A stretch of DNA of 64,000 nt from Bacteriovoracaceae bacterium (GCA_965224385.1 CBDCYX010000012.1:246426-310425); one strand, 5' to 3'; counted from the first letter of the stretch, positions 34,633 to 64,000 are shown. Program-made: numbers and translations. Notes: generated by a model from the letters alone, not told the origin.

Positions 34633-37600
34633 TTATGGCAAGTGTGAGTAGTCGGAATCTCCAAAGGGAATACCGTAATTTCCTTCCGTCCCTTTGAACA
34701 CACGATCGAAAACAACACAAAAGGCGGAGTCGGGGCAGTCGTCATTAGGATCGGTTGAACCGTCGAGTTTTGTCGCCGTATAAGGTAAATCCACGTTCTG
34801 CTTACCCGCCCAACTTGCGTCGTCGTTAACTTTCGCTACGATCTTATCGGCAATCTCCTCTTTTGTAAGATTGGAATTTCCAAGGCCGGTGTGTACGCTA
34901 TCGAGGTTGACGGTTTTATCTCCGGTTCCCGTATAGTCCTCCGAGATAACCCATAGTCCTTCTGCTCCGGCAGCGCCGCTTCCTCCAGTGAGGGGGATAT
35001 TGATCTCTACGCGAGTTCTTGTGCAGTTTCCGCCGTCATCGTCGTGGTAGATAGTTAAATTCAATCCGTTAAAGACGGCGGAGTTAACGGTTGCCTCTAT
35101 TTTGTCATTGCCTTTTTTAGCTAACGTCACATTGGTTCCCGCCATGTTCACGGGGGAACCGATCTTTGCAATCAGACTATCTATAACATTGGTAATCATT
35201 GTGCTGCCTCCAGTATTGTACGTTAGCGGTGTCGAATACTCCTTAAGAATCCAAGAACCGCCAAGGGTTCGGCCGGTAAATGCTAGAGCACAAATCTTCC
35301 CGCCTGCATCTGCTTCCAGTGCCGTCGCCGTTGGTGTAGAAACTGCCGTAAGCGTTGCCGTTTCTCCCGTACTCGTTCCCGTTCCGTCGGAACCGCCTGT
35401 CATCGCAACTTCTCCTACGATCTTTCCATAAAAGCCGGTCTCGGCGGCATCAAAATTTTTTCCCCAACACTTAACGGAATTGCCCGATTCCATAATAGCG
35501 CAAGTGTGGTCGTAACTTGCCGCAATTTGAATAGCGGTTTGTCCAACCAAGGGGTCGCCCGCCGTGCCTCTTAAAACCCGATCGGGACCGGAAGTACCGC
35601 CTCCTATCTCACCGTTGTCATTAACCCCCCAACACTTGACGGTCTTATCGCTTAAGAGAACACAACCGTGCTGTGCCCCCAACGTAATCTTTGTGGCGGT
35701 TTTGCCCACGCCTAAGACGGGGAAGCCGAGGTATCCCCAGCACACAACGCTAGCATCGTTGAGGGTGGCGCAAGAACTTGTGCCACCAATTGCAATCTTG
35801 GTGGCGGTTTTGCCGCTACCTAAACTCGGAGTCCCACCGCCTGTTTGCCTGAGGTGATTATACCCCCAGCACTTAACGGAGTTATCCGTTGTTAAGATGG
35901 CACAGGTGTGGAACTCTCCTGCCGCTATATGACTAGCGGTTCCGCTGCCTAAGGGGCTGCCTGACGTACCGCTTTTTGTTTTGTTGGCACCGGCAGTTCC
36001 GCCTCCGCTCTGCCCCCTGTTATTGCGCCCCCAACACTTGACGGTATCGTCGTTTAAAATAGCACAGGTATGCTCTCTTCCTACCGCCACGGACTTGACC
36101 GTGTTAGGGTTGCCGTCTCCATCGTTTCCTACGGCGGTAACAGCTGTCGGGGTGCTTCTAGGGCTAGTATCGCCAACTCCCAGTTGTCTGTTGGAGTTTT
36201 GCCCCCAACACATTAAACGCCCGTGGTTTAAGTTTCCGTTTTTTAAAATAATGCATTGGTGGTTGCGCCCCGACACAAGAGCTTGGGACGTATGGCCCCC
36301 TAAATCCTCCTTGATATGACTTCTCCAAGGGAAGGCACTAACTTTCCCCCATGATTCCACCTCACCGTTATCAAAAAGGACGCGACTGGTGTCTTTTCCA
36401 AGGGCGAGCGTTTGGGGTCTCGCTTTATTGCACATTCTTCCCGATATTGTATAACCCGAGGCACAGGAAAAGGGGCAGGAATCGGCATCGGTGGCAGCTC
36501 CCGATACCCAAGCACCAAAGTTCGGAGTACCCGAAATGTCCGTGCAGGAGACCTCGGCACCCAATGAGTCCACGTAAGTTCCTTGTGTCGGATACTTACA
36601 CCCCCCGGCAGAAGTATCCTTCACATAACCGGCAGTACAGGAAAATGGGCAAGCGGTGTCCGTTGAGGCGGCACCCACTATCCAAGTAGCGACTGCCGTT
36701 CCTTCAGTCGTAATAGCAGTACAGGGGGACTCGGTATTTCCGGCGTTGACGTATTTTCCCTTCGTTGGATAGTTACACTCCCGAGCAGAGGAATCCTTCA
36801 CAAAACCTGCATTACAGGAAAAATCGCAACCGTCAGCAGAATCAACTGCTCCGGTATTTTGCAAAAAGACGTCAAACCCGCTTGCGGCACCTGTGGGGTT
36901 ATCGCAACTTTGCTCGTTTCCTGAACTATCCGCATACTTTCCCGTATCTGGGGTAGCGCACGTTCTACCCACCGTTTTTTTCACAAATCCGGCATTGCAG
37001 GAAAAACCGCAATCGGTAGCAGAATCAACCGCTCCCGTGTTTAGCAAAAAGGTGTTAAACCCACCCGTGGGGTTGTTGCAACTTTGCTCGTCGCCTGAAC
37101 TATCCGCATACTTCCCAAGACCGGGAATATTACACGCCCTACCGGTTTTCACGAAACCCGGACTACAGGAAAAGGGGCAAGCGTCTGCCGTTGCGGCGGC
37201 ACCCCGTATCCAAGTGGCGGTCGCCCCTCCTTGAAGCGTAGTAATAGGATTGCATGATACCTCGGTACCACTCGCATTGACATATGTTCCTTTTGAAGGA
37301 ACGTCACAAGTACTACTTGCCGTGTTTTTTAAATAACCGCCGTCGCAGGTGTAACAGCCGTCCGCAGAGGAAAGTTCCGTTGTTGTCGTAGCAGAAGAAT
37401 GGGGAGGAGTCGGACAAGCTGTCCGAGCTTTGTCGTTTGCAGGAGAATAGAACCCCGATGCGGTTTGTTGGCATTGGGCAGTGTCTACATCATTATCATA
37501 TCCTGCATCGCAAGTCTCCACGGTACAAGTCGTGCTAAAATCGTCTGTGTTTGTATCCCAGAGGTTGAGTCCCCCTCCGTTGGGGACGGGATTAACGGGA

Positions 37601-38295
37601 TTAACGGGACAAGAGCGGGACTTGTTACAGGAAAAAAGAGATTCGCTCTTTGTAAATCCACTGTTACAGGAAAACTCACACTTATCGTTACTTGCCACGG
37701 GAGCAGTGTTGTTTTCCCAGTGAGAAAACCCTCCCGACGGAGTCTCGCCGACATCATTGCAACTCTGTAGATTTCCTTGGGCGTCGTAGTACTTCCCCTT
37801 ACCGGGAAGCGTACATTTTTTGTTGCTTGTATTCTTTAAAGACCCCGCCTTACAGTTCCAGCAGTCGGTTTCCGATTTAGTCCCCGTGGCGGTGTTCCTA
37901 AGAGAATGAGGGGGAAACGTTGTCAGGCATTTTTTCCTAGTCTTGTCCTTTGCGAGAGAGTAGTACCCTGCCTGAGTTTTTCCACATTGTGCTGGATTTG
38001 CAACATTATCATATCCCGCATTACAAGAGACGACTTTGCATGTTGTGCTATATTTTTTGGTTTTGGTATTCCAAGGAAGTTCTCCCTTCCCGTTGGGAAT
38101 AGGAGTCGTACACACTTTAGCAGCTTTAGCTTTTTTACTCGAAGAGGTCGAATCGCCGCCACCACCACTGCTCCCACCACAGCCCGACAGTAAGAGAAGA
38201 GAGAGAAACGTGTGATAAAGGCAGAGCTTCATGTGACCGATCCAAATAGTCGGGAAGGGGTGGGGTAGCATGAGAATATTTTTAAAAGGTTTCAT
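34633..38295 (-). CDS. Large surface lipoprotein: Cys-rich ~50-aa repeats + 7 RCC1-like blades + conserved C-terminal module (family member P1)
   Basis: AAGGAG 6 nt upstream of the ATG at 38295. Lipobox LLLSGC. Repeats of type C.F.C..G..K....C..P..G.Y. Seven (C/S)WG motifs. C-terminus ..DDCPDSAFCVVFDRVFKGTEGNYGIPFGDSDYSHLP. The alternative start at 38232 is also possible. Confidence 0.85.
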   Translation of the reverse strand: MKPFKNILMLPHPFPTIWIGHMKLCLYHTFLSLLLLSGCGGSSGGGGDSTSSSKKAKAAKVCTTPIPNGKGELPWNTKTKKYSTTCKVVSCNAGYDNVANPAQCGKTQAGYYSLAKDKTRKKCLTTFPPHSLRNTATGTKSETDCWNCKAGSLKNTSNKKCTLPGKGKYYDAQGNLQSCNDVGETPSGGFSHWENNTAPVASNDKCEFSCNSGFTKSESLFSCNKSRSCPVNPVNPVPNGGGLNLWDTNTDDFSTTCTVETCDAGYDNDVDTAQCQQTASGFYSPANDKARTACPTPPHSSATTTTELSSADGCYTCDGGYLKNTASSTCDVPSKGTYVNASGTEVSCNPITTLQGGATATWIRGAAATADACPFSCSPGFVKTGRACNIPGLGKYADSSGDEQSCNNPTGGFNTFLLNTGAVDSATDCGFSCNAGFVKKTVGRTCATPDTGKYADSSGNEQSCDNPTGAASGFDVFLQNTGAVDSADGCDFSCNAGFVKDSSARECNYPTKGKYVNAGNTESPCTAITTEGTAVATWIVGAASTDTACPFSCTAGYVKDTSAGGCKYPTQGTYVDSLGAEVSCTDISGTPNFGAWVSGAATDADSCPFSCASGYTISGRMCNKARPQTLALGKDTSRVLFDNGEVESWGKVSAFPWRSHIKEDLGGHTSQALVSGRNHQCIILKNGNLNHGRLMCWGQNSNRQLGVGDTSPRSTPTAVTAVGNDGDGNPNTVKSVAVGREHTCAILNDDTVKCWGRNNRGQSGGGTAGANKTKSGTSGSPLGSGTASHIAAGEFHTCAILTTDNSVKCWGYNHLRQTGGGTPSLGSGKTATKIAIGGTSSCATLNDASVVCWGYLGFPVLGVGKTATKITLGAQHGCVLLSDKTVKCWGVNDNGEIGGGTSGPDRVLRGTAGDPLVGQTAIQIAASYDHTCAIMESGNSVKCWGKNFDAAETGFYGKIVGEVAMTGGSDGTGTSTGETATLTAVSTPTATALEADAGGKICALAFTGRTLGGSWILKEYSTPLTYNTGGSTMITNVIDSLIAKIGSPVNMAGTNVTLAKKGNDKIEATVNSAVFNGLNLTIYHDDDGGNCTRTRVEINIPLTGGSGAAGAEGLWVISEDYTGTGDKTVNLDSVHTGLGNSNLTKEEIADKIVAKVNDDASWAGKQNVDLPYTATKLDGSTDPNDDCPDSAFCVVFDRVFKGTEGNYGIPFGDSDYSHLP

Positions 38296-38408
38296 AAAGC
38301 TCTCCTTGCTTTTAAATGTGGTTAAAAAATAATAGTCCTCCTTTATAATAAATTTTGAACACCGAAAACGCAAAAGATTTTTATATTACCGATTAAAATG
38401 GTTCATTA

Positions 38409-38938: not shown

Positions 38939-39000
38939 TACAGATTAAGTGCGTTGAACCAAAAACGGCCGGAAAAACGCCGGGAACTTTTGAAATTTTA

Positions 39001-39029: not shown

Positions 39030-39178
39030 CTACTTGTAGGTGTGAGAATTAAGCACCAACCTCCCGTAAGAGACTATGGGATGTGAAGTTCGTGGAAACG
39101 ATGTAAGACCAAAAACACTTGTTTTAGGCGATTGTCGGTGAAGTAAGAATCTCCTCCCTTTAGGGAGGGGTAGTTCAA
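39001..39178 (+). mobile_element. Diverged partial IS200/IS605 mini-element (linker promoter + omega-RNA-like scaffold + RE), copy D; no recognisable LE
   Basis: 39053-39178 aligns with the RE half of copies A-C and ends ..GGGGTAGTTCAA. 39001-39052 aligns positionally with the linker (-35/-10 boxes). Confidence 0.7.
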
Positions 39179-39215
39179 TATTGGAAAGTAAATTTAGTAT
39201 AGGGAGGTATCTATC

Positions 39216-42200
39216 ATGAACGGACGTTTTGGCATCTCTGTTGTTTATATTTGTCTTATTTTACTGGTATCTTGTGGAGATAATAGTAGCGGAGGAAAGA
39301 AAAGCACCACATCTAAAGACATACAAACCCTCGATTGTTCAAATGAAATTATTAACGGAACCGGACATAAAAAATGGAATACAAAAACGAAGTCTTATAG
39401 GAATGTATGTGAAATCTCCGGTTGCTACGGAGGGTTTGATACTTTAGAAGACTCGGCCATCTGCTTAGAGACACTAATAGGATACTATTCCCCTCCTGAA
39501 AGTAAACTTCGAGAGGAATGCCCCGGGACTCCCCCTCAAAATGCATCTCTTGTAACGGACACGTCGGGAATTTCCACCCGTCATGAGTGTTGGATCTGCA
39601 ATGACGGTTTTATTAAGGATGAACAAGGCAATTGTGTTCCTCCTGCTAAAGGAAAATATGTCGATGCGGAAGGAAGGGAGAGTGCTTGTTCTCCTATTAT
39701 GGGAAACGGTTTTAAGGAATTTAGAGGCCATGGAGGAACATCTCCCGAGGGTTGCAACTTTTCCTGTAAAAGCTCCCATACAAAAAATACGCAAACAAAA
39801 ACTTGTGACGAAAGAAACAAAGCATCTCAATATTGCCAGGTTGGTAACGGAGAAGGAATACGCATAGGGGGAGGATCGACCTGCTACATTACTTCCTGTG
39901 ATGACGGGTACGACAATATTAAGGATAGAACAAAGTGTGAAGAAACTCCATCGGGGTTTTACTCTTTTTTAGGACGAAAAATAACGTGTCCGAATCCTTT
40001 CAATTCTATTCCCACTGACAGAACCGGTCTTTCGTCTCCTTACAACTGTTATAGCTGTGAACCGGGTTATAAAAAGAGGGAAAGAGGAAGCGGATTGTGC
40101 ATCCTTCCCTTTCGGGGGAAGTACGTCGATACTACCGGCATCGAACAAAGTTGTACCGAGATACAAGGAGAGGGATTTAAGTCCTTTATAAAAAATACGG
40201 AAGGAGTCATGTCCGCCGATGAATGTGATTTTGTCTGTAGAAAGGGTTTTAAGAAAAATATCGTCGGACGAACGTGTGATAATATAGCTCTCGCAAACAT
40301 CCCCGGCGCAACTCCGGACGCAACGCCTGGAGAAACTCCCAATGTCGTACCCGAAGTAACTTCAGAATATTGTTCGATTGAAAACGGCATGGGCCAAAAA
40401 TTTTGTCAAGGCGGCCAATGTGGATCGTGCGAGGTTCAACGCTGTAATAAAAGTTATAAACCCAACACGAAAAACTCGACGAATCATCTTTGTACTGCCG
40501 CCGTCAAAAATTGTTCCCAGGAAATTGCAAACGGAAAGGGAAGGCGGCGTTGGCATGCGTCGACAAATGCTTATGGTGCCTGCAAAGTTGTTCAATGTTC
40601 TATCGGTTATGTGGACAAGAAAACTTCTTGTGCGATTCCTGATTCCGGCAAGTATGCTGATAAAAACGGTAAAGAAAAATCTTGTGAAAGTCTAGGGGGT
40701 ACGGGAAGTGGGCGTTTCCCAGACAACACAAAGGGAGTGAGAAGACCGGAAGATTGCAACTTTGAATGTGATGCCGGTTTTGTTAAAGACGTACCCGGTT
40801 ATGCCTGTAATATTCCGCCCACAGGATGGTATGCGAATAATAGAGGTGAAAAAAACCGTTGTGATAATATGGCCGGGTCCGGAATGGGTCGACATTTGCG
40901 CAATACAGAAGGTGTCACAACAGCGCAAGGCTGTGCCTTTACTTGTGATTTAGGTTATGTCAAAGACATGTCAAGTTATTCCTGTAATATTCCGAACCTT
41001 GGGAAATATGTCGGGGGGGGGGTCGTGAAAAACTGTGGCATTGTGGTGCACGGTCAACGTACGCTCAATACAGGGGCCGTCACAACGGCGACGGGCTGTA
41101 ACTTTGCCTGTGATGCCGGTTATATCAAAGATATGCGGAATTATTCTTGTAATATTCCTACTCTCGGACAATATTCAGGACCTTTGAGAACAGAGAGACC
41201 TTGTCAAGTGATAATCAACGGTCGGCATACGGCCAATGCCGGGGCGGTGGCAAACCCAACGAGTTGTAACTTTGCCTGTGATGCCGGTTACGTCAAAGAT
41301 CAGGACAACTATACCTGTAATGTTCCGAACCTCGGAAAGTATGTCGATAATGCCAATAACGAACTTCCTTGTACCAACATTACAAATATTCCCGATTTTA
41401 ACTCTTGGGAATCCGGCCCGGCCACCGATGACGATAGTTGCCCCTTTTCCTGTCAACCAAATTTTGTTGTAAACGGGAGAACTTGCAAGAAGGAGGTACC
41501 CAAAGTCACGGCCTTGGCCTTAGAGCAACATAAAAGTTATGCTCTCTTTAACAATGGTAAAGTCGAGAGATGGGGGGGGAGTTTGGGTGTTCCCCGTAAA
41601 GTCAATTTAGGCAGCGATAAGGCCCAAGCCGTTTTTTCAGGCCAAAACCACACCTGTGTTATTTTAAAAAACGCTAGTCTTGACCACGGACGGGTTCTGT
41701 GTTGGGGAGAAAACAATTACGGGCAACTGGGTGTGGGCGATATGATCGACAAGAGTGTGCCGACGGCCGTGACGTTTTTAGGTTCAAAAACGGCCAAGGC
41801 CTTAGGACTAGGATATGAGCACACTTGCGCCCTTTTAAACGACGATACCGTGAGCTGTTGGGGGAGAGGAGTCGAAGGCCAAATCGGAGGAAGGGGTAGC
41901 TTGCCGGGTATAAAAATCGAAAGCGGTTCCACAAACAATCCTCTAAGCGGAGGGACGGCCGTTCAGATAGCGGCAGGGTATTACCACACCTGTGCCATCT
42001 TAAACAATGGTTCAATCAAATGCTGGGGATTGGCAACGTCGGCCCAAACAGGTGGCGGGACTCCGAGTTTGGGAAATAATAAGACGGCCAAGCATCTTGC
42101 CTTGGCAGACCTGCACTCCTGTGCCGTTTTAAACGATGATTCTGTCTACTGTTGGGGGGCAGGAGTCAGCGGTAACCCCATCTACATCGGACAGGGAGGA

Positions 42201-43298
42201 GTTCCGGATTTAGGACACAATAAAACGGCCGCTTTCATTTCGGCAGGACATGACAACACCTGTGTTATCTTAAACGATAAAACTGTCAAGTGTTGGGGTA
42301 ACAATGATAATAATGAACTGGGCGGCGGTGTGCCCGATTATACCAAAAACAATAACATCTACACTTATCGGTCTTCCAAGGTTCTAAGGGGGATCAAGTA
42401 CAATCCTTTGGGGGGAGAAAAGGCCCTTTTTATTGCCGTGGGCAGAAACCACGCCTGTGCCGTCGTAGAGACGGGAAATACCGTTAAGTGCTGGGGGGAT
42501 AATGCTTACGGGCAGGCCGTAGGTGCTGTGAAAATGGAAGGGGGAAGCGACGGGACGGGTACGAGTTCCGGAGAGACGGCCGTGCTTACGGTCTCTTCGA
42601 CCCCCACACCGACGGCCTTGGAAGCGGACGCCGGCGGAAAAATCTGCAGGATTTCTCTTTCAGGCGGAGGACTCGGTAGAACTTGGGATATCGTGAACAA
42701 TGTCAATCTTGCCAATCTCCCAACTTATAATAGTTCAAACAATACATCTATTTCAAATGCTATCGACAATCTCGTTAATACCATCGGTACACTTCACTTC
42801 GTTGGGGCCGAGATAACCCTATCCCGAAGCAATAACGACAAAATCGAAGCATCCGTTAATAATGCCGTTTTTGACGGTATGACTCTTAATATCGCCCACG
42901 ACGATAACAGTGGTAATTGTAGTGGCCTGGTGACGACATCTTTTATGTTAAACGGTGGAAGCGGGGCCAATCAGGCCGAAGGAGTTTTGATCGTCAAAGA
43001 CGACTTTAAAGGGTTCGGCGACGGTATGGTCAATATCGACGGTACGGATATTTATTTGAAGGATGTTTTTCCCGCCCATGCAATACAGGAGATCGTAGAT
43101 AAAATCATTGGCGGACTTTCTTCTTTTAACTGGCCGGGAAAACAGTTCGCATCTCTACCCTATAGTGCGGCCAAACTCAATGGCGATACCGATAATAACG
43201 ACGATTGCCCGAGTGGCAATTTTTGTGTCGTCTTCACCCGGATGTTTGCCGGTACGGCCGGGAATGAGGTTATTCCCAAGGCCGATTTCGACTACGAC
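39216..43298 (+). repeat. Unit 1 of the giant ORF (1361 aa, includes the signal peptide and the longest Cys-repeat region)
   Basis: Ends ..NFCVVFTRMFAGTAGNEVIPKADFDYD. Confidence 0.75.
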
Positions 43299-51731: not shown

Positions 51732-51957
51732 AATAAAGACCAAATCAGAGAAAGTTGTACAAAAAAATTTCAGGAGATAGCAAATCATTATGGTCTGAAC
51801 ATCGTAAATAAGGAACACTGTCTCTCTTTAGCAAGGAATCCCGCCTGTTTAGGGCAATAATATCGACGGCCGCAATTCCTTCTCAATTCTCTTGAGATTG
51901 TGGGGCCGTTTCGACTCATCTGGCGGCCGATCTCTCGTTGACTCAACCCGCTTTTAT

Positions 51958-52202
51958 CTCAAGTGTGGCCCTAAAACCTCTTCCTTCAGGGAGAGGATGT
52001 GAGGCCACGCCCTTCGGCGAGAAAAAAAAATATTGTCTTTTGAAGAATATCATAATATATTGGATTTGTCGGAACAAAAACCGACCTACCGTAGGGACTA
52101 CGGGATGTGAAGCTCGTGGAGACGATGTAAGACCAAAAACACTTGTTTTAGGCAATTGTCGGTGAAGCAAGAATCTTCTCACTTTAGTGAGGGGTAGTTC
52201 AA
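51958..52202 (+). mobile_element. Non-autonomous IS200/IS605 mini-element, copy C
   Basis: 245 bp. Preceded by TTTAT (51953-51957) and ends in TTCAA (52198-52202). Confidence 0.85.
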
Positions 52203-53531: not shown

Positions 53532-54155
53532 TTAAAATGTTTTCGGTTTAAATTCTTTTCCGTTGACGAAGGTACTTATTTTAGCGTCACTCTTGGGAGA
53601 TTGAATCAAGAAAAGTCCCTGCTCATCAATATATTCTTTTATCTCTTCTTCCGTATGGCCTTTGTCATCAATAGTGAGATAGGCAACTCCTCCGTAAACG
53701 GTGCGACTTTCAACAAGGCCCGAGCAGTTTGCTTTAAAATCTTTGAGTTGTCCTAAAAACTTTGTGACATTGTCCTTGATAAGCGTCGTCTTGACCTCAA
53801 ACGCCACGCCCTCCGCTCCATTCACGGCCACAAGGTCGTACTCCGCAACCTGTTTACCTCCCCTAAATCCCTTTACCCTCTTGTGTAAATCGTCAACCTT
53901 GATGCCCCTGTCTTGAAGAAGAGAAATAAGATTACCTCCAACAAGGTTCTCCATAAAACGACCCCACTTGTTGTTAAAATTACCGTTCGCCTTATCTATG
54001 TTGTCGCCAAGTTTTTTTAAATATTCTTGGGTTTCTTGCAGGGCCTTCTCTGTTTTTTGCTGGGCCAATTCTGTTTTTTGTTGGGTTTCCACTAGGCCCT
54101 CAATGGCCCCCCAAGCATCTTCTAAACTTGATTTTCTTTTGGTCGTTGTGGACAT
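53532..54155 (-). CDS. PD-(D/E)XK-type nuclease-fold protein with an N-terminal coiled coil
   Basis: Coiled N-terminus (TELAQQKTEKALQETQEYLKKL). Core EYDLVAVNGAEGVAFEVKT (D...E.K). A truncated paralog lies at 58394-58684. Confidence 0.55.
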   Translation of the reverse strand: MSTTTKRKSSLEDAWGAIEGLVETQQKTELAQQKTEKALQETQEYLKKLGDNIDKANGNFNNKWGRFMENLVGGNLISLLQDRGIKVDDLHKRVKGFRGGKQVAEYDLVAVNGAEGVAFEVKTTLIKDNVTKFLGQLKDFKANCSGLVESRTVYGGVAYLTIDDKGHTEEEIKEYIDEQGLFLIQSPKSDAKISTFVNGKEFKPKTF

Positions 54156-54777: not shown

Positions 54778-55096
54778 AAGGCACTTAGGACGATTGGAAA
54801 AGGCCTTTAAATGTAAAATATGATCCTTACTAGGATAGAAGGGTTTGAACGCTTAAAAAGGCGATTTTGCTCTTTTTTTTTAAAGTTAGTTAAAAATGAA
54901 TAAAAAAAAGCTAGGGGGGTTTGCTTAAATGTTTACCGTCTCGGAGTTCCGAAGGCAAGTAGTAGAAAGTGGGCCCCTACCCTCGAAATTCACCGTTCTC
55001 AATAACAACACAAGGAGATGTTTATGATACGGAGAAACGGGTTGACTCAAGAGCAAGGGCCTTTTATTATAAGTCGCAATTTTTTTTAATGTTCTT

Positions 55097-58000
55097 TTAA
55101 TGTGAGTAGTCCCGATCCCCGAAGGGGATCCCGTAATTTCCTTCCGTTCCTTTGAACACACGCCAGAAGGCGACACAAAAGTCGTTGGCGGGGCAGTCAT
55201 CGCCGGCATCGCTTGAACCATCGAGTATTGTCGTCGTGTAAGGTAAATCCACGTACTGTTTACCCGCCCAGTTTACGTCGCTAACTTCAGAAACGATCTT
55301 ACTGGCGATGCCCTCTTTTGTAAGAGAGGAAGTTCCAAGGTCAATATGTACGCTATCGAGGTTGACGGTTTTATCTCCCGATCCGCTAAAGTCGTTCGAG
55401 ATAACCCATAGTCCTTCGGCCTCAGCGGCCCCGCTTCCTCCGGTAAGGGGGATAGCGGTTGTTACTACAGTACCTGTTGTGCAATCTCCGCCGTTATCGT
55501 CGTGGTAGATAGTTAAAGTCATTCCATCAAGGATGGCGTTGTTAACGGTCGCCTCTATTTTGTCATTGTCTTTTTTAGCTAACGTCACGTTAATTGTTCC
55601 CGCTACGTTCACGGTGGAACCGATCGCCGCAATCAGGTTATCTATAGCATCGGTAATCGCCGTACTGCCTCCCCCATTATACGTTAGCGGTGTTGTATAC
55701 TCTTTAGCAACCCAAGAACCAAGGGTTCCGCTAAGGGTTCCGCCGGAAAGTTCTATCTTACAAATCTGCCCGTCTTCATCCGAGTCCAAGGCGGTTGCCG
55801 TCGGTGTAGCAACTGCCGTAAGTACTTGGGACTCTCCCGTACTCGTTCCCGTTCCATCGGTTCCGCCTGCCATCGCAACTTCTCCTACGATCTGTCCGTA
55901 AAAGCCGGAGTCGTTTTCATCAATATTACTTCCCCAACACTTAACGGAGTGATCCGACTCCATAATGGCGCAATTGTGTTCGTAACCTGTCGCAATTTCA
56001 ATAGCAGTTTGTCCACCCAAGGGGTCGCCCTCCGTCGTGCCTCTTAAAACACGACTGGAAGCATCAACCCCGCTTCCTAGCTGACCGACAGGGTTCCTCC
56101 CCCAGCAGTATACAGTCTTATCGGTTAAGAGAGCACAAGCGTGATTTCCCCCCACCGTAACCCTAGTGGCAGTTTTGTTAACCCCCAAGGAGGGGGAAGG
56201 GATTCTCTTGTTTCCCCAGCACTTAACGCTAGCGTCGTTGAGAATGGCGCAAGAAGAGATGTCTCCCACTGCAATCTCGGTGGCGGTTTTGTTAACCCCT
56301 AAATTCGGTGTCCCGCCGCTGGTTTGCCCCCAGGCATTGGTCCCCCAGCATTGAACGGTGCTATCTGTCAAGACGGCACAGGTGTGCCATCTTCCCGCCG
56401 ATATGCGATTAGCGGTTGTGCTACCTAAGGGGCCACCTACCGTGCCGCTTATTGTGTTCTTGGCACCGGAGCCGCCTCCTATCTGCCCGTTGCTGTTCTG
56501 CCCCCAGCACTTGACGGTATCGTCGTTTAAGAGTGCGCAGGTATGCTCGTCTCCCGCCGCCACGGACTTGACCGTCTTGGGGGTCGCCCCGTCTCCGGTG
56601 TCTCCCAAGACGGCAACGCTAACATCTGTCGGAGTGCTTCTCGGGTTAGTATCGCCAACTCCCAGTTGTTCGCCGCCGTTTTGCCCCCAACACATTAAAC
56701 GCCCGTGGTTTAAGCTTCCGTTTTTTAAAATAATGCATTGGTGGTTGTACCCCGACTCAAGAGCTTGAGGCGTATTATTACCTAAGTTCTCCTTGATATG
56801 AGTTTTGAAAGGGGAGGTACTAACACTCCCCCATGCTTCCACCTCACCGTTATCAAAAAGGACGTGACTGGAGCTTCTCCCAAGGGCGAGGGTTTGGGGT
56901 CTCGCTTTATTGCACGTTCTTCCCGATATTGTATAACCCGAGGCACAGGAAAAGGGGCAGGAATCGGCATCGGTGGCAGCTCCATCTAACCAAGAACCAA
57001 AGCCCGTCATACCCGTAATGTTCGTGCAACCGACCTCGGTACCCGATGCGTTGACGTAATTCCCGAGTGTTGGATACTTACACTCCCGAGCAGAGGAATC
57101 CTTCAAATAACCGGCACTACAGGAAAAGGGACAGGTGGCGGCCGTTGCGGCGGCACCCGCTATCCAAGTAGCGGTTGCCGTTCCTTCAGTCGTAATAGGA
57201 TTAGAATCACAGGATGCCTCGGTATTTCCGGTGTTGACGTAATTTCCTGTGGAAGGAAAGTTACAAGACCTTCCGCTTTTCACGAAACCTGTACTACAGG
57301 AAAACCCGCAACCGTCGGCGGCAGACACCGCTCCCGTATTGGCGACAAAGTCATCAAACCCTCCTGTGTCTTCCGTGATAGGAGAGCAAGATTTCTCTAC
57401 TCCGTTATCCGCATAATGTCCCTTACGGGGAATATTACACGCCCTCCCGCTTTTCACAAAACCTGTACTACAGGAAAAGGGACAGGCGTCTGCCGTTGCG
57501 GCGGCACCCGCTATCCAAGTAGCGGTTGCCCCTCTTTGAAGCGTAATAGGACTGCATGATACCTCGGTACCACTCGCATTGACATGTTTTCCTTTTGAAG
57601 GAACGCCACAAGTATTTTCTCCCGTGTTTTTTAAATAACCGCCGTCGCAGGTGTAACAGCCATCCGCAGAGGAAAGCTCCGTCGTTGTCGCAGGAGAGGA
57701 GTTGCTAGGCGTAGGGCAAGCTGTTCGGGCATTATTGTTTGCAGGCGAGTAAAAGTTCGCCGCCGTCTGTTGGCATTTTGTCGGGTCTTGGGTGTTGTCG
57801 TATCCTCCAGCACAGGTAAAACAAGCGTCTGCGGAAGAGCGCCCTGTCGTTGTCGTAGGAGAGGAGTTGTTAGGCGTAGAACAAGCGATTCGGGCATTAT
57901 TGTTTGTAGGCGAATAGTAGGTCGCCGCCGTCGGTTGGCATTCTGTTTTATCCACGACGTTGTCGTAACCTGCATCGCAAGCAGTTATTGTGCAAGTCTC

Positions 58001-58249
58001 GCTATGCTTTTTTGTCGTTTTATTCCAAACTTTTTGACCGCTACCGTTGTCGGTAGTGCAAGCTTTTGGTTTCGTGCTAGAGCTTGCCCCCGACGAATCC
58101 CCGCCGCCGCCGCCACTGTCACTGTCACTACCGCAGCTCGACAGTAAGAGAAGAGTAGCTACGAGAAAGTGGGGTCTCATTAATTCCACACCAAGAAGAG
58201 TGAGGTACCGTAAAAAAGTAAAGGTGTTTTTTGTGAGGATTGTTTTCAT
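55097..58249 (-). CDS. Large surface lipoprotein of the Cys-repeat/RCC1 family (member P3)
   Basis: AAGGAG 8 nt upstream of the ATG at 58249. Lipobox LLLSSC at the same distance (39 aa) as in P1. Seven (C/A)WG motifs. C-terminus ..DDCPANDFCVAFWRVFKGTEGNYGIPFGDRDYSH. Confidence 0.85.
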   Translation of the reverse strand: MKTILTKNTFTFLRYLTLLGVELMRPHFLVATLLLLSSCGSDSDSGGGGGDSSGASSSTKPKACTTDNGSGQKVWNKTTKKHSETCTITACDAGYDNVVDKTECQPTAATYYSPTNNNARIACSTPNNSSPTTTTGRSSADACFTCAGGYDNTQDPTKCQQTAANFYSPANNNARTACPTPSNSSPATTTELSSADGCYTCDGGYLKNTGENTCGVPSKGKHVNASGTEVSCSPITLQRGATATWIAGAAATADACPFSCSTGFVKSGRACNIPRKGHYADNGVEKSCSPITEDTGGFDDFVANTGAVSAADGCGFSCSTGFVKSGRSCNFPSTGNYVNTGNTEASCDSNPITTEGTATATWIAGAAATAATCPFSCSAGYLKDSSARECKYPTLGNYVNASGTEVGCTNITGMTGFGSWLDGAATDADSCPFSCASGYTISGRTCNKARPQTLALGRSSSHVLFDNGEVEAWGSVSTSPFKTHIKENLGNNTPQALESGYNHQCIILKNGSLNHGRLMCWGQNGGEQLGVGDTNPRSTPTDVSVAVLGDTGDGATPKTVKSVAAGDEHTCALLNDDTVKCWGQNSNGQIGGGSGAKNTISGTVGGPLGSTTANRISAGRWHTCAVLTDSTVQCWGTNAWGQTSGGTPNLGVNKTATEIAVGDISSCAILNDASVKCWGNKRIPSPSLGVNKTATRVTVGGNHACALLTDKTVYCWGRNPVGQLGSGVDASSRVLRGTTEGDPLGGQTAIEIATGYEHNCAIMESDHSVKCWGSNIDENDSGFYGQIVGEVAMAGGTDGTGTSTGESQVLTAVATPTATALDSDEDGQICKIELSGGTLSGTLGSWVAKEYTTPLTYNGGGSTAITDAIDNLIAAIGSTVNVAGTINVTLAKKDNDKIEATVNNAILDGMTLTIYHDDNGGDCTTGTVVTTAIPLTGGSGAAEAEGLWVISNDFSGSGDKTVNLDSVHIDLGTSSLTKEGIASKIVSEVSDVNWAGKQYVDLPYTTTILDGSSDAGDDCPANDFCVAFWRVFKGTEGNYGIPFGDRDYSH

Positions 58250-58393: not shown

Positions 58394-58684
58394 TTAAAAT
58401 GTTTTAGGTTTGAAGTCGTTTTTATTTGTAATGCTTGCGCTGTCTCCAGTTGCTTTAATCACAAAAAGTCCCTGCTTTTCTGAATATATTGTCGCATGAA
58501 CATCATATCGAAGATAACCAACGGCACCGTAAACTTGTTTTGAAGAATACTCGGGGAATATTTCTTTAAAAATCGCTAACTTTTTTAAAAAGTACTTCGT
58601 ATCGTCAATTCTTAAAGTAGTTTTCACCTCAACAACAATGACTTCATCTCCATTCACCGCAAGAATATCAAATTCATAATTCAT
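58394..58684 (-). pseudogene. 5'-truncated paralog of the PD-(D/E)XK protein at 53532..54155
   Basis: MNYEFDILAVNGDEVIVVEVKT...FKPKTF aligns with the C-terminal half of the 207-aa paralog. The first 22 codons of the track ORF derive from the IS terminal repeat at 58729-58748. Confidence 0.6.
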
Positions 58685-58878
58685 TTTTTCTTCTTTATGA
58701 GGACGAACTCTTGTCATTGTCTTATCTACTGGAGAGTCAGGAGTTCTCATTCTGAAAAAAAGCTATTTCGCAAGAAACCATCATCTCAACCTTCAAATTT
58801 TGTTTTTTCTTAAATGAATTTCTTCAAGTTTGACAGGAGTTCTTGACCCCTCTATGGAATCTACGAAGTTTAAAAGAC

Positions 58879-58931
58879 CCTTTTTGACCGGCCGCACTTC
58901 ACCTTTGCTCGACATGGGGCATTGTACCTTT
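58879..58931 (+). repeat. Solo right end of IS21 copy-1 type
   Basis: Matches 4128-4181. No istA or istB is adjacent. Confidence 0.7.
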
Positions 58932-58955
58932 GGGGATTCCGATTACTCATATTAG
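58929..58955 (+). pseudogene. Last 8 codons plus stop of another family member (FGDSDYSY*), all that remains after truncation at the IS21 end
   Basis: TTTGGGGATTCCGATTACTCATATTAG compares with the ..IPFGDSDYSH termini of the intact paralogs. Confidence 0.6.
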
Positions 58956-59013: not shown

Positions 59014-60000
59014 ATGAAGATTTCAAAACGCTTTATTCACGACATTTTTTTTAAAGAAATCTACGCCGATAAAAGGTATTCCCTAGATATTTTTAAACTT
59101 GTTTTAACGAAGACCGAGTACTCCCTTTTCGATTGGAAGACGCTTAAAAGTGAGCTGACGAGTTTTGTCGATACCGAACAACGGGAAAAACGCATGGATT
59201 TAACGTTTTCGGTAAAACTGAAACGAGGAAAGCAAACGGCGAGGATACTCTTTCTTCTTGAACACAAGAGCTACCGTAACGATGATTTGCTCGTTCAAAT
59301 GCTCGAATATCAAACGGGCATTTATCGCCGAACCCGAACCCCGGTTATCCCCATTCTCGTCTACCACGGGAAAGAAAAGAAATGGCGAGGCGTTCTCAAT
59401 TTTCAGGACTCCCTAAAGGGATTAACTCCGACGGTTAGGCGAAAGTTTCAAAAGAATATTTTAAACTTCACCTGTAAACTGCTCAACATTAGGGAACTGA
59501 ACATTCGAGGTTCGGCAAAAAAGCTCGTTACGGCGCCGGTTCTTCTTATTTTGCAACAAATTTGGAAACTCGATGCAAACAATGTTGAAGAGTTCTTTTT
59601 GCTATCTCAGCATTTACCTGACAAAGAACGAAGAGACCTGATAATGAAGGCGAGCAACTACATAAGAAAAAACGATCCCGGTTTTCATTGGCATCGTTTA
59701 ATTGAAATAGAGGAAAAAGTTATAACAGAGAAAGGAGAGAGAATTATGTTTTCATTAAAAGACACTCTTGACGAAGTGAAGGAAGAGGGACGACAGGAAG
59801 GAATTGAAAAAGGAATTGAAAAGGGAATTGAAAAGGGAATTGAAAAGGGACTCTTAAAAGGACGACAAGAAGGAATTCAAAAAGGAAAGCAAGAAGTTGC
59901 GTTAAAACTTGTAAAGAAAGGTTTTGACCTTGAAGACGTCGCCGAGAGTACGGGGGTTCCTAAAGACGACCTTGAAAAACTGCGCGGGTCTTTAAAATAA
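59014..60000 (+). CDS. Rpn/YhgA-like PD-(D/E)XK family protein
   Basis: ..FFKEIYADKRYSLDIFKLVL.., MDLTF...ILFLLEHKS, a (GIEK)4 linker and a ..ALKLVKKGFDLEDVAESTGVPKDDL.. tail. Confidence 0.75.
   Translation: MKISKRFIHDIFFKEIYADKRYSLDIFKLVLTKTEYSLFDWKTLKSELTSFVDTEQREKRMDLTFSVKLKRGKQTARILFLLEHKSYRNDDLLVQMLEYQTGIYRRTRTPVIPILVYHGKEKKWRGVLNFQDSLKGLTPTVRRKFQKNILNFTCKLLNIRELNIRGSAKKLVTAPVLLILQQIWKLDANNVEEFFLLSQHLPDKERRDLIMKASNYIRKNDPGFHWHRLIEIEEKVITEKGERIMFSLKDTLDEVKEEGRQEGIEKGIEKGIEKGIEKGLLKGRQEGIQKGKQEVALKLVKKGFDLEDVAESTGVPKDDLEKLRGSLK
59800..59847 (+). repeat. 12-bp tandem repeat x4 (GGAATTGAAAAG; encodes GIEK x4)
   Basis: Counted directly. Confidence 0.9.
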
Positions 60001-60526: not shown

Positions 60527-60701
60527 AACATGGGCCGCCAATTAATGGGCAAATTAGAGGTATTTTAAAATGTGGTCATTGCCTGAGAATTAGAAAAATA
60601 GATTTTGCAATACATCATGCTTAAAAGTTGGACTTAAACTTTTTGACTATTGCGTTGCAAAATGACAGCAAATAAAGCAATTAAAGTAGCATTAAAAAAT
60701 T

Positions 60702-61321
60702 ATGAAAAATAAGCAACAAGACAATGTCCACAATAACTTTTTTAAGGACTTTTTCTCGACAAAACGTTATGGAGTCGAATTCCTAAAACTTGTCCTTCGT
60801 CCTTCACAATTCAATCTCTTTAATTGGGACACTCTCAGATCGGAGATGGAAACTTTTATTACTCGCGAAGGCCTAGAGAAGAGAACCAACCTTATCTTTT
60901 CCGTTAATTTCAAAGGTGGACGAAAGGGGCAGAAAGCAAAGATTATCTTTCTTATTGAACACAAGGCATACAAAGACAAAAAGCTCTTGTTTCAACTTTT
61001 GGAATATCAAGCAGTCTTGTATAAAAAGGAACCCGTCCCCATCATCCCCGTTGTTTTCTACCATGGAAAAACAAAAACCTTTAAACACTCTTTAAATTTT
61101 CATGATTCTTTAGAGGGACTTCTACCTTCGGTTAGAAGAAAGTTTGCAAAACACATTCCCAATTTTGAACCGATTTTGTTAAAGGAAGGCAAGAAGGAAG
61201 GAGAGAGGTTGCCTTAAAACTTCTTCAAGAAGGGGTCGATTTTAAAGTCATCAAAAAAACTACGGAACTTTCTGAAGAAGAAATAAAAGTCATAGAAAAA
61301 GAAATTCTTAAGGAAGGATAG
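60702..61321 (+). pseudogene. Rpn/YhgA-like gene with an internal out-of-frame deletion
   Basis: The first ~160 codons are near-identical in protein to 4923..5963. The frame breaks at ..EPILLKEGKKEGE... The C-terminal ALKLLQEGVDFKVIKKTTELSEEEI.. continues in another frame to 61321. Confidence 0.75.
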
Positions 61322-61514
61322 TTAAAAAGAGATTTTGCCTGTGTGTGGGGAGACTTTAAAAAAGTTTGTGTATGAGTGAGGCCTTCTTTATCTCAGTATC
61401 CAAAATAATGGAGAATGCTCTCTGGCGATTTTTTGTTTTTTTTGGGCAGCAGTGTTATTTTGGTAATTCTTTGTGAATTTTTTAAGGAATGTAAACAGGC
61501 CCTAGTAATAATTT

Positions 61515-62624
61515 CTAAAAAACTAAAGAGACCTGTACTCCACTCATTTCTGAGAGTTTTATATTGTTAACGTATTTTTTTCTGGGTTTTTTATGAGTAA
61601 CACTGATTTCCAAAGGCCAAAATTTAACCCTGTTGGAAAACGTTGTATACTCGGCATCCAATTGCCATGCTAGATTCATCTGTAGTCTGTCTTTAAAAAA
61701 GATAAAACTTCCAATCCCTCCTCCATAATAACCGTCTTTGATCTCGTAATCCTTTCTCTTGTGAACGCCGATAAAAGGTAGTATTTGGAAGGCACCGATT
61801 CTGTGTTTATACTTTATGTCGTATCTCAAAACAGGGGTGGCATTATAAATAATTTTTCCGGCCTTCTCTTTATTGTCCGATAGCTTCACCACGGGAATCT
61901 CTTCGATACCCATGCTGATTTGAAGGTTTTTCCTTGTATATGTTGTGGTATAATCAAGATTTAAAAATGTTGTATTATTATTCTCTTCTTTAGAACTTCT
62001 ACGTTTTGTGATAGATTTCTTATCCTTGGACAGCTCTTTCGCATCGGCCTGCGTGTGGGAGTCGGTTCTACTAAGTTTGTAAAGATTAATCGCCCCTCCC
62101 CACCGCTTTCTCTCACCGACTTTATAATCGGTGAACAATCCCACCTTTGTTTCAAGATTTATATAGTTGATTACATGGTCGTCACTTGTATCAATATAGG
62201 GAGGAAGATTAGGGGTATCTTTTTTTACCATCGTTACAAGTCCTCCGCCGGAGAACATAAATCTTATGTTTGGTTCAAATTGAATGCGTCTGATATTAAA
62301 AGAAAACAAAGAGATACCGATTTCGGTAAACGCTTTTGCAAAAAACTCGGAGTTAATGTATTTGTCGATAAAACCCAGAGCATTTTTCAATTTTTTGTCG
62401 TCCGAAGTCTTCTCTTCGGATAGTTTTTTACTTTCATCGATAAGATCTAAAATATCACTCATACTTAAAGAAAGGGTAAGAAAATGGTTGTCTGCAGTGA
62501 CGGGGTGTAAATATCGAGTGTAGGTTTGATATCGATCATCAAGAATTTGATACCTCTTAACGAGAACATTGCCCTGAATATTCCAAGCAGAAAAAGAGAA
62601 TAGGCCTAAGAGAAAAACTTTCAT
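61515..62624 (-). CDS. Putative outer-membrane beta-barrel protein
   Basis: Start chosen at MKVFLLGLFSFSAWN (signal-like). Alternating-polarity strands and a C-terminal ..VQVSLVF (terminal Phe). Confidence 0.5.
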   Translation of the reverse strand: MKVFLLGLFSFSAWNIQGNVLVKRYQILDDRYQTYTRYLHPVTADNHFLTLSLSMSDILDLIDESKKLSEEKTSDDKKLKNALGFIDKYINSEFFAKAFTEIGISLFSFNIRRIQFEPNIRFMFSGGGLVTMVKKDTPNLPPYIDTSDDHVINYINLETKVGLFTDYKVGERKRWGGAINLYKLSRTDSHTQADAKELSKDKKSITKRRSSKEENNNTTFLNLDYTTTYTRKNLQISMGIEEIPVVKLSDNKEKAGKIIYNATPVLRYDIKYKHRIGAFQILPFIGVHKRKDYEIKDGYYGGGIGSFIFFKDRLQMNLAWQLDAEYTTFSNRVKFWPLEISVTHKKPRKKYVNNIKLSEMSGVQVSLVF

Positions 62625-63020
62625 ATTAATATTATCTTTTGGATTCCCACTTATTGTCAATTGCGGCAAATTAGGCCATAGAGGTTTTTTTCCATTTTTT
62701 TTTTGATGGTTTTCTGGGATTTTAGGCCATAACAATCGAGAGTTATTATCAGTTTTAGACCTAAAAAAGACTCATCAGCTTCTTCATCACTCGTTGGAAA
62801 ATCAATTGAGAAATCTGTCCAACCTTGCCACCAAGTATCTTGGCCCCTCCCGGCAGGCCCAACAGCACCCATAGCTCCTTTAAAATTTTGCTAACCAAAT
62901 CGGATTTATCCTCTTAGCATTAGTTGACTTTACACAACTCGATACCGGGGCCGCTTTTGAAATTACGGTTTTTTTTAACTCCGATCGAAGGAATCATAAA
63001 AAAACACGGGTTTTACCGCT

Positions 63021-64000
63021 TTAGTGTTCGTAGTCCCGATCTCCGAAGGGGATTCCGTAATTTCCTTCCGTCCCTTTGAACACACGCCAGAAGGCGACAC
63101 AAAAGTCGTTGGCGGGGCAGTCATCGCCGGCATTGCTTGAACCGTTGAGTATTGTCGTCGTGTAAGGTAAATCCTTGTACTGCTTACCCGCCCAGTTTAC
63201 GTCGCTAACTTCAGAAACGATCTTACGGGCGATGCCCTCTTTTGTAAGAGAGGAAGTTCCAAGGTCAATGTGTACGCTATCGAGATTGATGGTTTTATCT
63301 CCCGATCCGGTAAAGTCGTTCGAGATAACCCAGAGTCCTTCTGCTCCGGCGGCACCGCTTCCTCCGGCAAGGGGGATAGCGCTCGTCACTACAGTACCTG
63401 TTGTGCAATCTCCGCCGTTATCGTCGTGGTAGATAGTTAAAGTCATTCCGTCAAAGACGGCGGAGTTAACGGTCGCCTCTATTTTGTTGCCTTGTTTAGA
63501 CAAAGTCACGTCGGTTGTCGCCAAATTTACGGGGGAACCGATCGTTGCAATCAGGTTATCTATAGCAGCGGAAATCGTCGTACTGCCTCTCCCATTATAC
63601 GTTAGCGGAGTTGTATAGTTTTTAACAACCCAAGGGTCGCTAAGGTTTCCCTCGGAAAGAGTTAGAGCACAAACCTTCCCTCTTGCATCTGCTTCCAGTG
63701 CCGTCGCCGTCGGTATAGAAGTTGCCGTAAGCGTTGCCGTTTCTCCCGTACTCGTTCCCATTCCGTCGGATCCGCCTGTCATCGGAACTTCTCCTACGAT
63801 CTGTCCGTAAAAACCATTGCCATTGTTATCAATATTACGTCCCCAACACTTAACGGAATTGTCCGACTCCATAATGGCGCAGGTGTGGTTGTAACCTGTT
63901 TCAACTTGAATAGCGGTTTGTCCGCCCAAGGGGTCACCCAATGTGCCTCTTAAAACCTGATGGGAACCGGCAGTTCCGCCTCCAATCTGAGCTTTGTCAT
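63021..64000 (-). CDS. Surface lipoprotein family member P4, 3' part only (continues beyond the window)
   Basis: The frame stays open to 64000 (..QIGGGTAGSHQVLRGTLGDPLGGQTAIQ..). The C-terminal module is highly similar to P3 and ends ..FGDRDYEH. Confidence 0.85.
   Translation of the reverse strand, partial: DKAQIGGGTAGSHQVLRGTLGDPLGGQTAIQVETGYNHTCAIMESDNSVKCWGRNIDNNGNGFYGQIVGEVPMTGGSDGMGTSTGETATLTATSIPTATALEADARGKVCALTLSEGNLSDPWVVKNYTTPLTYNGRGSTTISAAIDNLIATIGSPVNLATTDVTLSKQGNKIEATVNSAVFDGMTLTIYHDDNGGDCTTGTVVTSAIPLAGGSGAAGAEGLWVISNDFTGSGDKTINLDSVHIDLGTSSLTKEGIARKIVSEVSDVNWAGKQYKDLPYTTTILNGSSNAGDDCPANDFCVAFWRVFKGTEGNYGIPFGDRDYEH

Follow-up and report, generated by a model that had tools for sequence, protein, structure and literature searches.

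Genes of the family and their relatives

The locus considered here is a stretch of 64,000 nucleotides (nt) from the genome assembly of a Bacteriovoracaceae bacterium (GCA_965224385.1, CBDCYX010000012.1:246426-310425), hereafter the window, with positions counted from its first letter. It contains a family of long genes whose products combine a predicted lipoprotein signal, a stalk of cysteine (Cys)-rich repeats, an RCC1-type propeller, and a conserved C-terminal module (Table 1). Three genes (A, B, and C) comprise a single such unit, one giant gene (G) comprises four units, and two further stretches are fragments. These coordinates, proposed in an earlier note on this DNA, were reproduced by open reading frame (ORF) listing and translation.

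Read from its 5' end, gene A comprises a Shine-Dalgarno (SD) sequence and an upstream ATG in frame with the lipoprotein, a decayed poly-C tract, the lipobox LLLSGC, two head modules, a stalk of six 58-amino acid (aa) Cys repeats, seven RCC1 blades, and the C-terminal module. Gene B has a strong SD and ATG, no poly-C tract, and four 58-aa Cys repeats. Each of the four G units carries a stalk of ~58-aa repeats, seven blades, and a C-terminal module of ~260 aa, and the blades counted in the sequence comprise, per unit, six CWG blades and an SWG-type first blade. The lipoboxes of B (LLSSC) and G (LLVSC), like that of A, are each followed by a Gly/Ser-rich tether, and most relatives likewise carry a lipobox, where the lipoprotein call is a match to the motif [LVI][ASTVI][GAS]C only. 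The window yielded 31 four-Cys repeats of ~58 aa with the consensus CxxPxxGxYVDxxGxExxC...CPFSCxxGY. The C-terminal module ends with the motif DDCPxxxFCVxFxRxFxGxxGNxxIPFxDxDY, and its last ~75 residues, where invariant positions are densest, are kept in all seven window copies. At the sequence level, the shared build described in the earlier note (lipobox, Cys repeats, seven blades, and C-terminal module) is borne out, with the repeat now measured at ~58 aa.

Table 1. Features of the family locus and its surroundings, with positions in the window.
Feature	Position	Strand	Remarks
Gene A (P0011)	34633-38295	-	1220 aa, single-unit
Gene B (P0001)	55097-58249	-	1050 aa, single-unit
Gene C (3' 325 codons of P0012, 1014 aa)	63021->64000	-	extends beyond the window
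Giant gene G (P0055)	39216-51464	+	4082 aa, one lipobox, four in-frame units
G units 1 to 4	39216-43295, 43296-46214, 46215-48860, 48861-51461	+	end at aa 1360, 2333, 3215, 4082
Low-divergence tract of A	36307-36576	-	versus B 56789-57058; dS 0.05-0.13, dN/dS above 1; holds 36398-36501
3' 466 nt of B	55100-55565	-	~93% identical to C 63024-63489, 78% farther upstream
Decayed homopolymer CCCCACCCCTTCCC	38252-38265	-	leader of gene A, where relatives carry C10-C14
G10 homopolymer	41013-41022	+	inside G unit 1, codes GGG, currently in frame
Fragment F, pseudogene remnant	4189-4728	+	97% identical to B 55011-55325
27-nt remnant	58929-58955	+	FGDSDYSY*, last nine codons of a family gene
53-bp sequence, copy 1	4129-4181	+	3' of IstB gene 3576-4085; putative insertion sequence end
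53-bp sequence, copy 2	58879-58931	+	94% identical to copy 1; adjoins the 27-nt remnant
IS21-type elements, two	764-4181 and ~6105-7849		IstB at 3576-4085 and 6871-7653
Group II intron	10090-11810		Rfam RF02005 at 10090-10324, 98.6 bits; reverse transcriptase ORF 10560-11810
Rpn/YhgA-like nuclease gene	4923-5963	-	four-residue (GRQE)n repeats; fragment F is 198 nt away
Truncated/frameshifted PDDEXK_2 (Rpn-type) gene	33801-34614	+	ends 19 nt from the stop of A
Rpn/YhgA-like gene	59014-60000	+	(GIEK)n repeats; 58 nt past the 27-nt remnant, 765 nt upstream of B
Truncated Rpn-like gene	60702-61273	+	1.7 kb from the stop of C
Small ORF, 118 aa	58394-58750	-	directly upstream of B; weak sub-threshold Hjc/AHJR-like matches
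207-aa paralogue of 58394-58750	53532-54155	-	weak Hjc match; ~1 kb downstream of B

The products of A, B, C, and G all match Pfam RCC1 families well above the gathering thresholds, with scores of 131–500 bits for RCC1_2 (cutoff 22) and 42–146 bits for RCC1 (cutoff 21.7), and those of B (208) and G (460) exceed the cutoff of 150 for WD40_RLD. The propeller is a generic binding scaffold. No NCBIfam model matched any of the four products, and no Pfam family covered the Cys repeat or the C-terminal module. Matches of the Cys repeat to Pfam were just marginal (Antistasin and cEGF, E > 0.01), and neither the repeat nor the C-terminal module had a sequence match in PDB. An AlphaFold model of the C-terminal module (predicted local distance difference test, pLDDT, 71) comprises two beta-rich lobes.

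A homologue search of 5.8 billion proteins yielded 54 matches that were mostly family members or fragments, all of those from ENA or NCBI, while the weakest of the 54, including those from JGI, had the RCC1 region alone in common. The 575-kb contig that includes the window encodes six additional paralogues, and a second genome has six on one contig of 1.79 Mb. The C-terminal module was detected in only 37 of 1.84 billion representative clusters, which include some multi-unit proteins and some distant proteins that repeat only the second half of the module. No relative was found in a pattern-based scan of GTDB genomes with the C-terminal profile, or in scans of JGI metagenomes by the 5'-leader DNA pattern and by the C-terminal profile. 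In a literature search, RCC1, phase variation, and homopolymeric tracts did not occur together in any paper, and the RCC1 mentions retrieved for Leptospira and Bdellovibrio concerned other proteins. Collectively, the protein family appears to be undescribed.

Six related loci from ENA metagenomes, represented by long-read contigs of 4–16x coverage, were compared with the window. Tandem arrays of family genes are found in two of these, with three genes in L085 (1-8203) and two in L086 (6041-12235), and both the 5' leaders and the 3' flanks are conserved among the tandem copies. Multi-module members also include P0008, with two C-terminal modules, and the longer proteins P0057 (1901 aa) and P0058 (2573 aa). 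Frameshifts are present in several of the metagenome copies.

Family genes have a G+C content of 0.50–0.52 and a third-position G+C (GC3) of 0.49–0.51 in a genome with a background of ~39% G+C, and neighboring housekeeping and mobile genes have a GC3 of mostly 0.33–0.41 (range 0.23–0.46). The raised GC3 of the family is compatible with either GC-biased gene conversion or a foreign origin. With respect to affiliation, the nrdA and nrdB products (27745-31218) have 75–76% aa identity to those of Bacteriovoracaceae/Halobacteriovoraceae metagenome-assembled genomes, with flanking genes not in common, and one IstB (6871-7653) is 51% identical to IstB from Bdellovibrio plasmids and at most 37% identical to those from elsewhere. 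These comparisons hint at an affiliation with the Bdellovibrionota. The best full-length plasmid matches of the Rpn genes, at just 30%, were in Leptospira, and comparison of TnpB gave no informative taxonomic match.

Recombination among the single-unit genes

The single-unit genes are related to each other unevenly along their length. In a codon alignment, A and B have an overall synonymous divergence (dS) of 0.49 and a ratio of nonsynonymous to synonymous divergence (dN/dS) of 0.48. In windows of 60 codons, dS is saturated across the first ~150 codons, amounts to 0.13–0.17 at aa 302–362 of A, and is 0.05–0.13 at aa 574–663, where dN/dS exceeds 1. The last of these intervals holds 36398-36501, which differs from 56880-56983 in B at two of 104 positions, with identity dropping on either side. 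When only codons specifying the same amino acid in A and B were counted, synonymous differences were heterogeneously distributed (chi2 = 102, 15 df, p = 5.6e-15), and this heterogeneity was weaker when the N-terminal region was left out (p = 0.013; longest-run p = 0.038). A and B diverge most in the N-terminal head, and mosaic tracts are found along the whole gene.

A breakpoint was identified between B and C by a maximum chi-square (MaxChi) analysis of the coding sequence; a run that included the 3' flanks merely returned the trivial breakpoint at the stop codon. Identity between B and C rises from 77.9% to 93.1% at 466 nt before the stop (permutation p < 2e-4), while a control comparison of A with C over the same columns revealed no breakpoint (p = 0.48). 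That A–C is flat where B–C jumps argues against simple constraint, and we interpret this segment of B as an intragenomic conversion or recombination tract. B is also related to fragment F: the last 228 nt of B and 4415-4642 differ at six positions, the identity runs exactly 85 nt beyond the stop, and BLAST alignment of the two sequences gave 97.1% over 315 nt.

Nine family genes (A, B, and seven from metagenome contigs) were aligned over 1785 ungapped nt of the propeller and C-terminal module. Pairs of these genes are 78–88% identical overall, and nearest partners switch along the alignment. Specifically, A is 99% identical to P0008 over ~400 nt, 94% identical to P0015 elsewhere, and 94–95% identical to P0022 at both ends; B switches its nearest partner likewise. 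The pairwise homoplasy index (PHI; own implementation) computed on these nine genes was far below the permuted values (z = -22.7, 507 informative sites, 0 of 2000 permutations as low) and was still low when only third codon positions were used (z = -9.4). At the protein level, the best match to A changes ~20 times among members from the same genome, the second genome, and metagenomes, and P0005, P0010, and P0012, all from the same genome as the window, switch likewise. No full-length orthologue of A or B in another genome was present among the family members found. Collectively, the statistical evidence for recombination or gene conversion between single-unit family members is strong.

Within the genome, the best tracts are 97% (F–B) and 93% (B–C) identical in nucleotide sequence, and no identical tract was detected in comparisons of window DNA and, for paralogues beyond the window, of proteins. 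Among seven paralogues from this genome, the longest exact match spans 46 aa, whereas A and one metagenome protein have 83 identical residues in common. The units of G are only 52–56% identical to each other in nucleotide sequence (dS > 2), and PHI among the four was not significant (z = -1.6, p = 0.065). G lies outside detectable exchange, and its units are old.

With these results, both counts of differences given in the earlier note (two in 104 between A and B, and six in the 3' end of B relative to F, continuing ~85 nt past the stop) were reproduced, and the recombination test that it had called for revealed no uniform divergence. Its claim of patchy identity holds for the single-unit subfamily, as indicated by the heterogeneity of dS, MaxChi, and PHI, and does not extend to the saturated units of G. 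Its description of conserved ends and variable middles disagrees with the divergent N-terminal head and with the spread of mosaic tracts over the whole gene.

The 5' leader, the fragments, and the neighborhood

Seven of the eight family genes aligned have a 5' module in common, which G lacks. In order, it comprises an AT-rich promoter-like block, AAGGAGAT with an upstream ATG (MKLLATKK[SP]YNATL), a poly-C tract, TIRVGY-MK(H/R)xFF, and the lipobox. Promoter scans gave matches not above shuffled expectation, with one 10/12 match 54 nt upstream of B. The full-length copies each have a strong SD (AAGGAG), an ATG, and a lipobox of their own which, together with the conserved leader, indicates that the long copies are genes rather than silent cassettes.

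Four related genes carry an uninterrupted poly-C tract at the same position in the leader: C14 in L001 (10043-10056, in frame), C12 in L083 (9970-9981, out of frame), C10 in L084 (2046-2055, in frame), and C13 in L086 (9159-9171, out of frame). Runs of at least 10 C were found seven times in ~95 kb of related sequence, and four of the seven are at this exact leader position. Poly-Pro leaders are encoded by P0005 (from the same genome as the window), P0013, P0040, and P0042, and other members have decayed (LAPLPN) or deleted versions of the tract. The only run of at least 10 G or C in the window is the G10 inside G. The ATG internal to the leader has no SD, while the upstream ATG has the strongest SD seen in the window; translation therefore probably begins upstream, in which case expression would depend on tract length. 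The poly-C tract of the relatives, longer than the roughly eight units by which repeats of contingency genes in promoters or 5' coding regions are defined, is a candidate for a slipped-strand phase-variation switch with the classic design of a contingency locus. Since the tract is decayed in A and absent from B, both of these genes look locked on.

The two fragments are of different extents. Fragment F joins ~1.3 Cys repeats, across a frameshift or deletion, to the terminal 76 codons of a family gene followed by 85 nt of its 3' flank, and the second fragment is the 27-nt remnant. Each is directly preceded by a copy of a 53-bp sequence that is associated with an insertion sequence (IS), and the two copies meet the family sequence at two different positions. 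Because both fragments adjoin the same IS-associated 53 bp, they look like IS-truncated debris, and IS-mediated truncation would be the simplest reading of their origin. Upstream of gene B, short end pieces of the IS21-type elements recur at 58751-58833 (inverted) and 58879-58931.

The mobile content of the window comprises the two IS21-type elements, a TnpB element, a group II intron, and DDE transposases, including one in an IS at 2015-3481 that interrupts the first IS21-type element. The TnpB (IS605 OrfB/Cas12f-like) element is at 24055-25796, and three TnpB-derived copies of ~250 nt that are 95–97% identical are at 13453-13708, 15559-15814, and 51952-52202, with a partial copy at 39055-39178. 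These copies look like the two ends of the TnpB element joined without cargo and resemble miniature inverted-repeat transposable elements (MITEs). The giant gene is flanked by one full and one partial MITE-like copy in direct orientation, and an ORF at 13995-15473 is flanked by two others. The stretch 21542-24061 encodes an 839-aa protein that combines a long run of TPR/Sel1 repeats with a trypsin-like peptidase domain; the DNA encoding the repeats (~21870-23390) is 65–70% internally self-similar over more than 1 kb. Directly 3' of gene C and on the same strand is an ORF of 406 aa (61515-62735, minus strand) with no Pfam match, whose product ends in ...VSLVF, a C-terminal Phe that recalls the outer-membrane beta-barrel signature.

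Origin of the diversity and comparison with known systems

We consider it likely that these genes represent a narrowly distributed family of predicted lipoproteins diversified by ordinary evolutionary mechanisms, with no dedicated machine. Each protein begins with a predicted lipid anchor and a Gly/Ser tether, followed by disulfide-type repeats that form a stalk, a propeller, and a two-part, beta-rich C-terminal module, and the family resides in an accessory region rich in mobile elements. Units may have been duplicated together with their conserved 5' leader and, in some copies, 85–175 nt of 3' flank; repeats would have been gained and lost, and one gene would have arisen when four entire units were joined in frame. 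Single-unit paralogues would repeatedly have exchanged segments of less than 1 kb by ectopic homologous recombination or gene conversion, which would have made each gene a mosaic with ~80% identity overall and tracts of 93–99%. Fast amino-acid change (dN/dS of ~0.5 and locally above 1) would be consistent with an exposed protein that serves in binding and evolves under either diversifying or relaxed selection, possibly imposed by an external partner. IS truncation would have left the two fragments, and some relatives would probably switch on and off through slippage of the poly-C tract that separates the signal peptide from the strong start codon upstream. Recombination is frequent on an evolutionary scale, and no sign supporting programmed or high-rate ongoing exchange was found. 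The combination of anchor and tether, disulfide-rich stalk, dN/dS, mosaicism, and candidate phase variation would fit an exposed recognition or adhesion protein.

Several observations weigh against parts of this account. Seven of the nine genes used for PHI are from other genomes, on low-coverage long-read metagenome contigs, so that much of the signal may reflect family-wide exchange, possibly between strains, rather than intragenomic conversion. Intragenomic relations within the window number only two, B–C and B–F, and the latter could be plain segmental duplication because the identity between F and B includes the non-coding flank. Neither of the complete single-unit genes of the window has an intact poly-C tract, and the in-frame and out-of-frame states were read from different paralogues in 4–16x long-read assemblies, in which homopolymer length is unreliable. 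Surface exposure and function are deduced entirely from the lipobox and the evolutionary pattern. A fold search with the C-terminal module returned no known fold, with a weak sub-threshold match to antibody light chains (best E 8.3e-3, TM ~0.2), and the model of the Cys repeat is of low confidence (pLDDT 49), which leaves the propeller alone as structural support for a binding function.

One alternative is programmed, high-frequency antigenic variation, in which one or a few expressed genes are continually rewritten from paralogues and silent fragments by conversion of segments, as with vlsE of Borrelia, pilE/pilS of Neisseria, tprK of Treponema, or MgPar. The strong recombination signal and mosaicism, two non-expressible fragments with family sequence, dN/dS locally above 1, nuclease genes beside most copies, and the lack of a full-length orthologue in a related genome would all be expected of such a system. 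However, we consider it unlikely, since the locus has no layout of expression site and silent array, and the full-length copies carry their own SD, ATG, lipobox, and leader. Fragments number only two, both at the IS-associated 53 bp; tracts within the genome are never identical, reaching at most 97% in nucleotide sequence and 46 aa in exact matches; and the units of G are saturated with a non-significant PHI. Motifs of the G-quadruplex type are also sparse, with none upstream of any family gene start in the 64-kb window. The two detected are at 37582-37608 (plus strand), on the non-coding strand of gene A within a PVNPVNPVP repeat, and at 62844-62870 (minus strand), in the spacer 3' of gene C. 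With respect to the earlier note, which compared the locus with gene-conversion loci for surface variation, recombination among paralogues is supported and one expression site fed by promoterless cassettes is not; the promoter-less fragments cited there look IS-truncated, and the recombination-associated neighbors are IS, TnpB, a group II intron, and Rpn-type nucleases.

The last of these neighbors could themselves matter if breaks made by Rpn-type and Hjc-like PD-(D/E)XK nucleases stimulated conversion among the paralogues. Each of the four Rpn-type genes or gene fragments of the window has a member or remnant of the family at a distance of 19 nt to 1.7 kb, the product of 60702-61273 being 87% aa identical to the N-terminal half of that of 4923-5963, and the same adjacency is observed in two of the six related loci, L083 (7535-8464) and L086 (4468-5713). 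Small Hjc/AHJR/NERD-like paralogues with products ending in ...FKPKTF are located beside B and also beside family genes in L083 (8932-9696 and 2550-3041) and L082 (539-823), and the product of 53532-54155 is 70% identical to that of the ORF directly upstream of the L083 family gene. Against this, four of the six related loci have no Rpn gene in the sequence compared, two of the four window Rpn copies are truncated, and the Hjc matches are below Pfam thresholds. Defence and mobile genes, moreover, generally accumulate in accessory islands. Rpn proteins of Escherichia coli do raise RecA-independent recombination (PMC5350276), but repeat-bearing Rpn genes have been described as toxin-antitoxin antiphage genes of which variable four-residue repeats are a hallmark (PMC10400941). 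The repeats of the window genes match this hallmark, and co-location in an accessory island rich in defence genes and IS is therefore the conservative reading. We regard nuclease-assisted conversion as improbable. A broader proposal, that RCC1 genes, poly-C leaders, and flanking nucleases form one module in which breaks drive conversion and slippage selects the expressed copies, seems to us a shade more doubtful still. If true, it would imply a combinatorial repertoire for surface recognition in a bacterium whose nrdAB and IstB comparisons hint at the Bdellovibrionota, and this repertoire could serve prey recognition if the bacterium is a predator.

Uneven selective constraint on old duplicates could in principle produce patchy identity without recombination, and some of the data lean this way: the best short matches between G units and other genes are on RCC1 motif regions, the G units by themselves give no significant PHI, and the A–B heterogeneity is moderate once the N-terminus is removed. 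Yet constraint cannot give one gene pair synonymous divergence ranging from saturated to 0.05, cannot explain why B–C reaches 93% where A–C and A–B stay at ~80%, and cannot explain successive segments with different nearest partners at 94–99%; nor does it fit the PHI result at third positions. For the single-unit subfamily this explanation is largely refuted, and as an account of the whole we find it as doubtful as the combined module. Very improbable is the possibility that the mosaics are assembly artefacts, produced by the collapse or chimeric joining of paralogues or of strains present together. The comparison genes are indeed from 4–16x long-read metagenome contigs, several with frameshifts, but tracts in the window are 93–97% identical whereas chimeric joins of the same molecule would be 100% identical, every pair of the nine independently assembled genes has mosaic boundaries, and P0005, P0010, and P0012 on the 575-kb contig switch partners at the protein level. 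A diversity-generating retroelement was rejected because the sole reverse transcriptase belongs to the group II intron (self-BLAST detected no pair of template and variable repeats near it), and a polymorphic toxin with orphan cassettes was rejected given a conserved C-terminus and no match to a toxin family in Pfam or NCBIfam.

If the products of this likely ordinarily diversified family are surface exposed, they would represent an undescribed family in the role of Bab/Hop, Tpr, Opa, and Vsp, with a recombining and partly phase-variable repertoire, from a poorly known lineage without members in the reference collections scanned. The family could then provide a handle on what the organism must recognize or evade, be it host, phage, or prey. 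Two uncharacterized domains, a four-Cys repeat of 58 aa and a C-terminal module of ~260 aa, would also be added to the modules of bacterial surfaces. Ectopic conversion, homopolymer slippage, and decay through IS are textbook processes, and the novelty lies in the family and the lineage, not in the principle.

Systems with a dedicated donor array, such as vlsE/vls of Borrelia and pilE/pilS of Neisseria, have one expression site, a contiguous array of promoterless cassettes, and tracts identical to their donors. They resemble the present family in having segmental conversion mosaics in a surface lipoprotein or pilin and non-expressible partial copies. In contrast, the long copies here are all complete genes, only two fragments are present, both IS-associated, and identical tracts are absent.

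The Rhs/CDI (contact-dependent inhibition) polymorphic toxins are likewise large, repeat-rich exported proteins with fragments of gene 3' ends nearby. In polymorphic toxins, however, the C-terminus is hypervariable and followed by an immunity gene (PMC3482391), whereas here the last ~75 residues are the most invariant and F is 97% identical to B. With respect to fold, the Legionella effectors LegG1/PieG and the giant RCC1 proteins of Oscillospiraceae have in common with the family an RCC1-type propeller, here of seven blades as counted in the sequence, and giant RCC1 proteins with multiple propellers exist elsewhere (bioRxiv 10.1101/2023.11.21.568195). These are secreted effectors or repeat-only giants, and none has been described with a lipobox, the 58-aa Cys repeat, or this C-terminal module, or as a recombining, phase-variable paralogous family.

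The tpr family of Treponema pallidum comprises paralogous candidate surface proteins that undergo gene conversion, with homopolymeric poly-G tracts modulating expression of some members (PMC7112178, PMC7864442); the family described here resembles it in its recombining paralogues and in the candidate homopolymer switch of some copies. One member, tprK, differs in having its own set of donor cassettes and seven separate variable regions that are altered in the course of an infection (PMC7593977), and neither a donor array nor discrete variable regions of this type are seen in the window. The tpr poly-G tracts act on transcription from a position upstream of the gene, whereas the poly-C tract is inside the translated leader.

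The babA/babB/babC genes of Helicobacter pylori are, like the single-unit genes, several full-length, independently expressible paralogues (PMC3444412, PMC4552749, PMC5483490). In the Bab/Hop family, as proposed for the family described here, chimeras arise by intragenomic gene conversion, loci vary between strains, and some copies are turned on and off through a slippage-prone repeat in the 5' coding (signal) region. The Bab/Hop proteins differ in being autotransporter-like beta-barrel outer membrane proteins rather than lipid-anchored RCC1 propellers, and the Bab repeat is a CT dinucleotide rather than poly-C. Moreover, A and B have no intact tract, and exchange and switching of Bab have been observed experimentally, whereas both are deduced from sequence comparison in the family described here. 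Collectively, these comparisons suggest that the bab/hop family of H. pylori and the tpr family of T. pallidum are the closest analogues of this family in mode of evolution.

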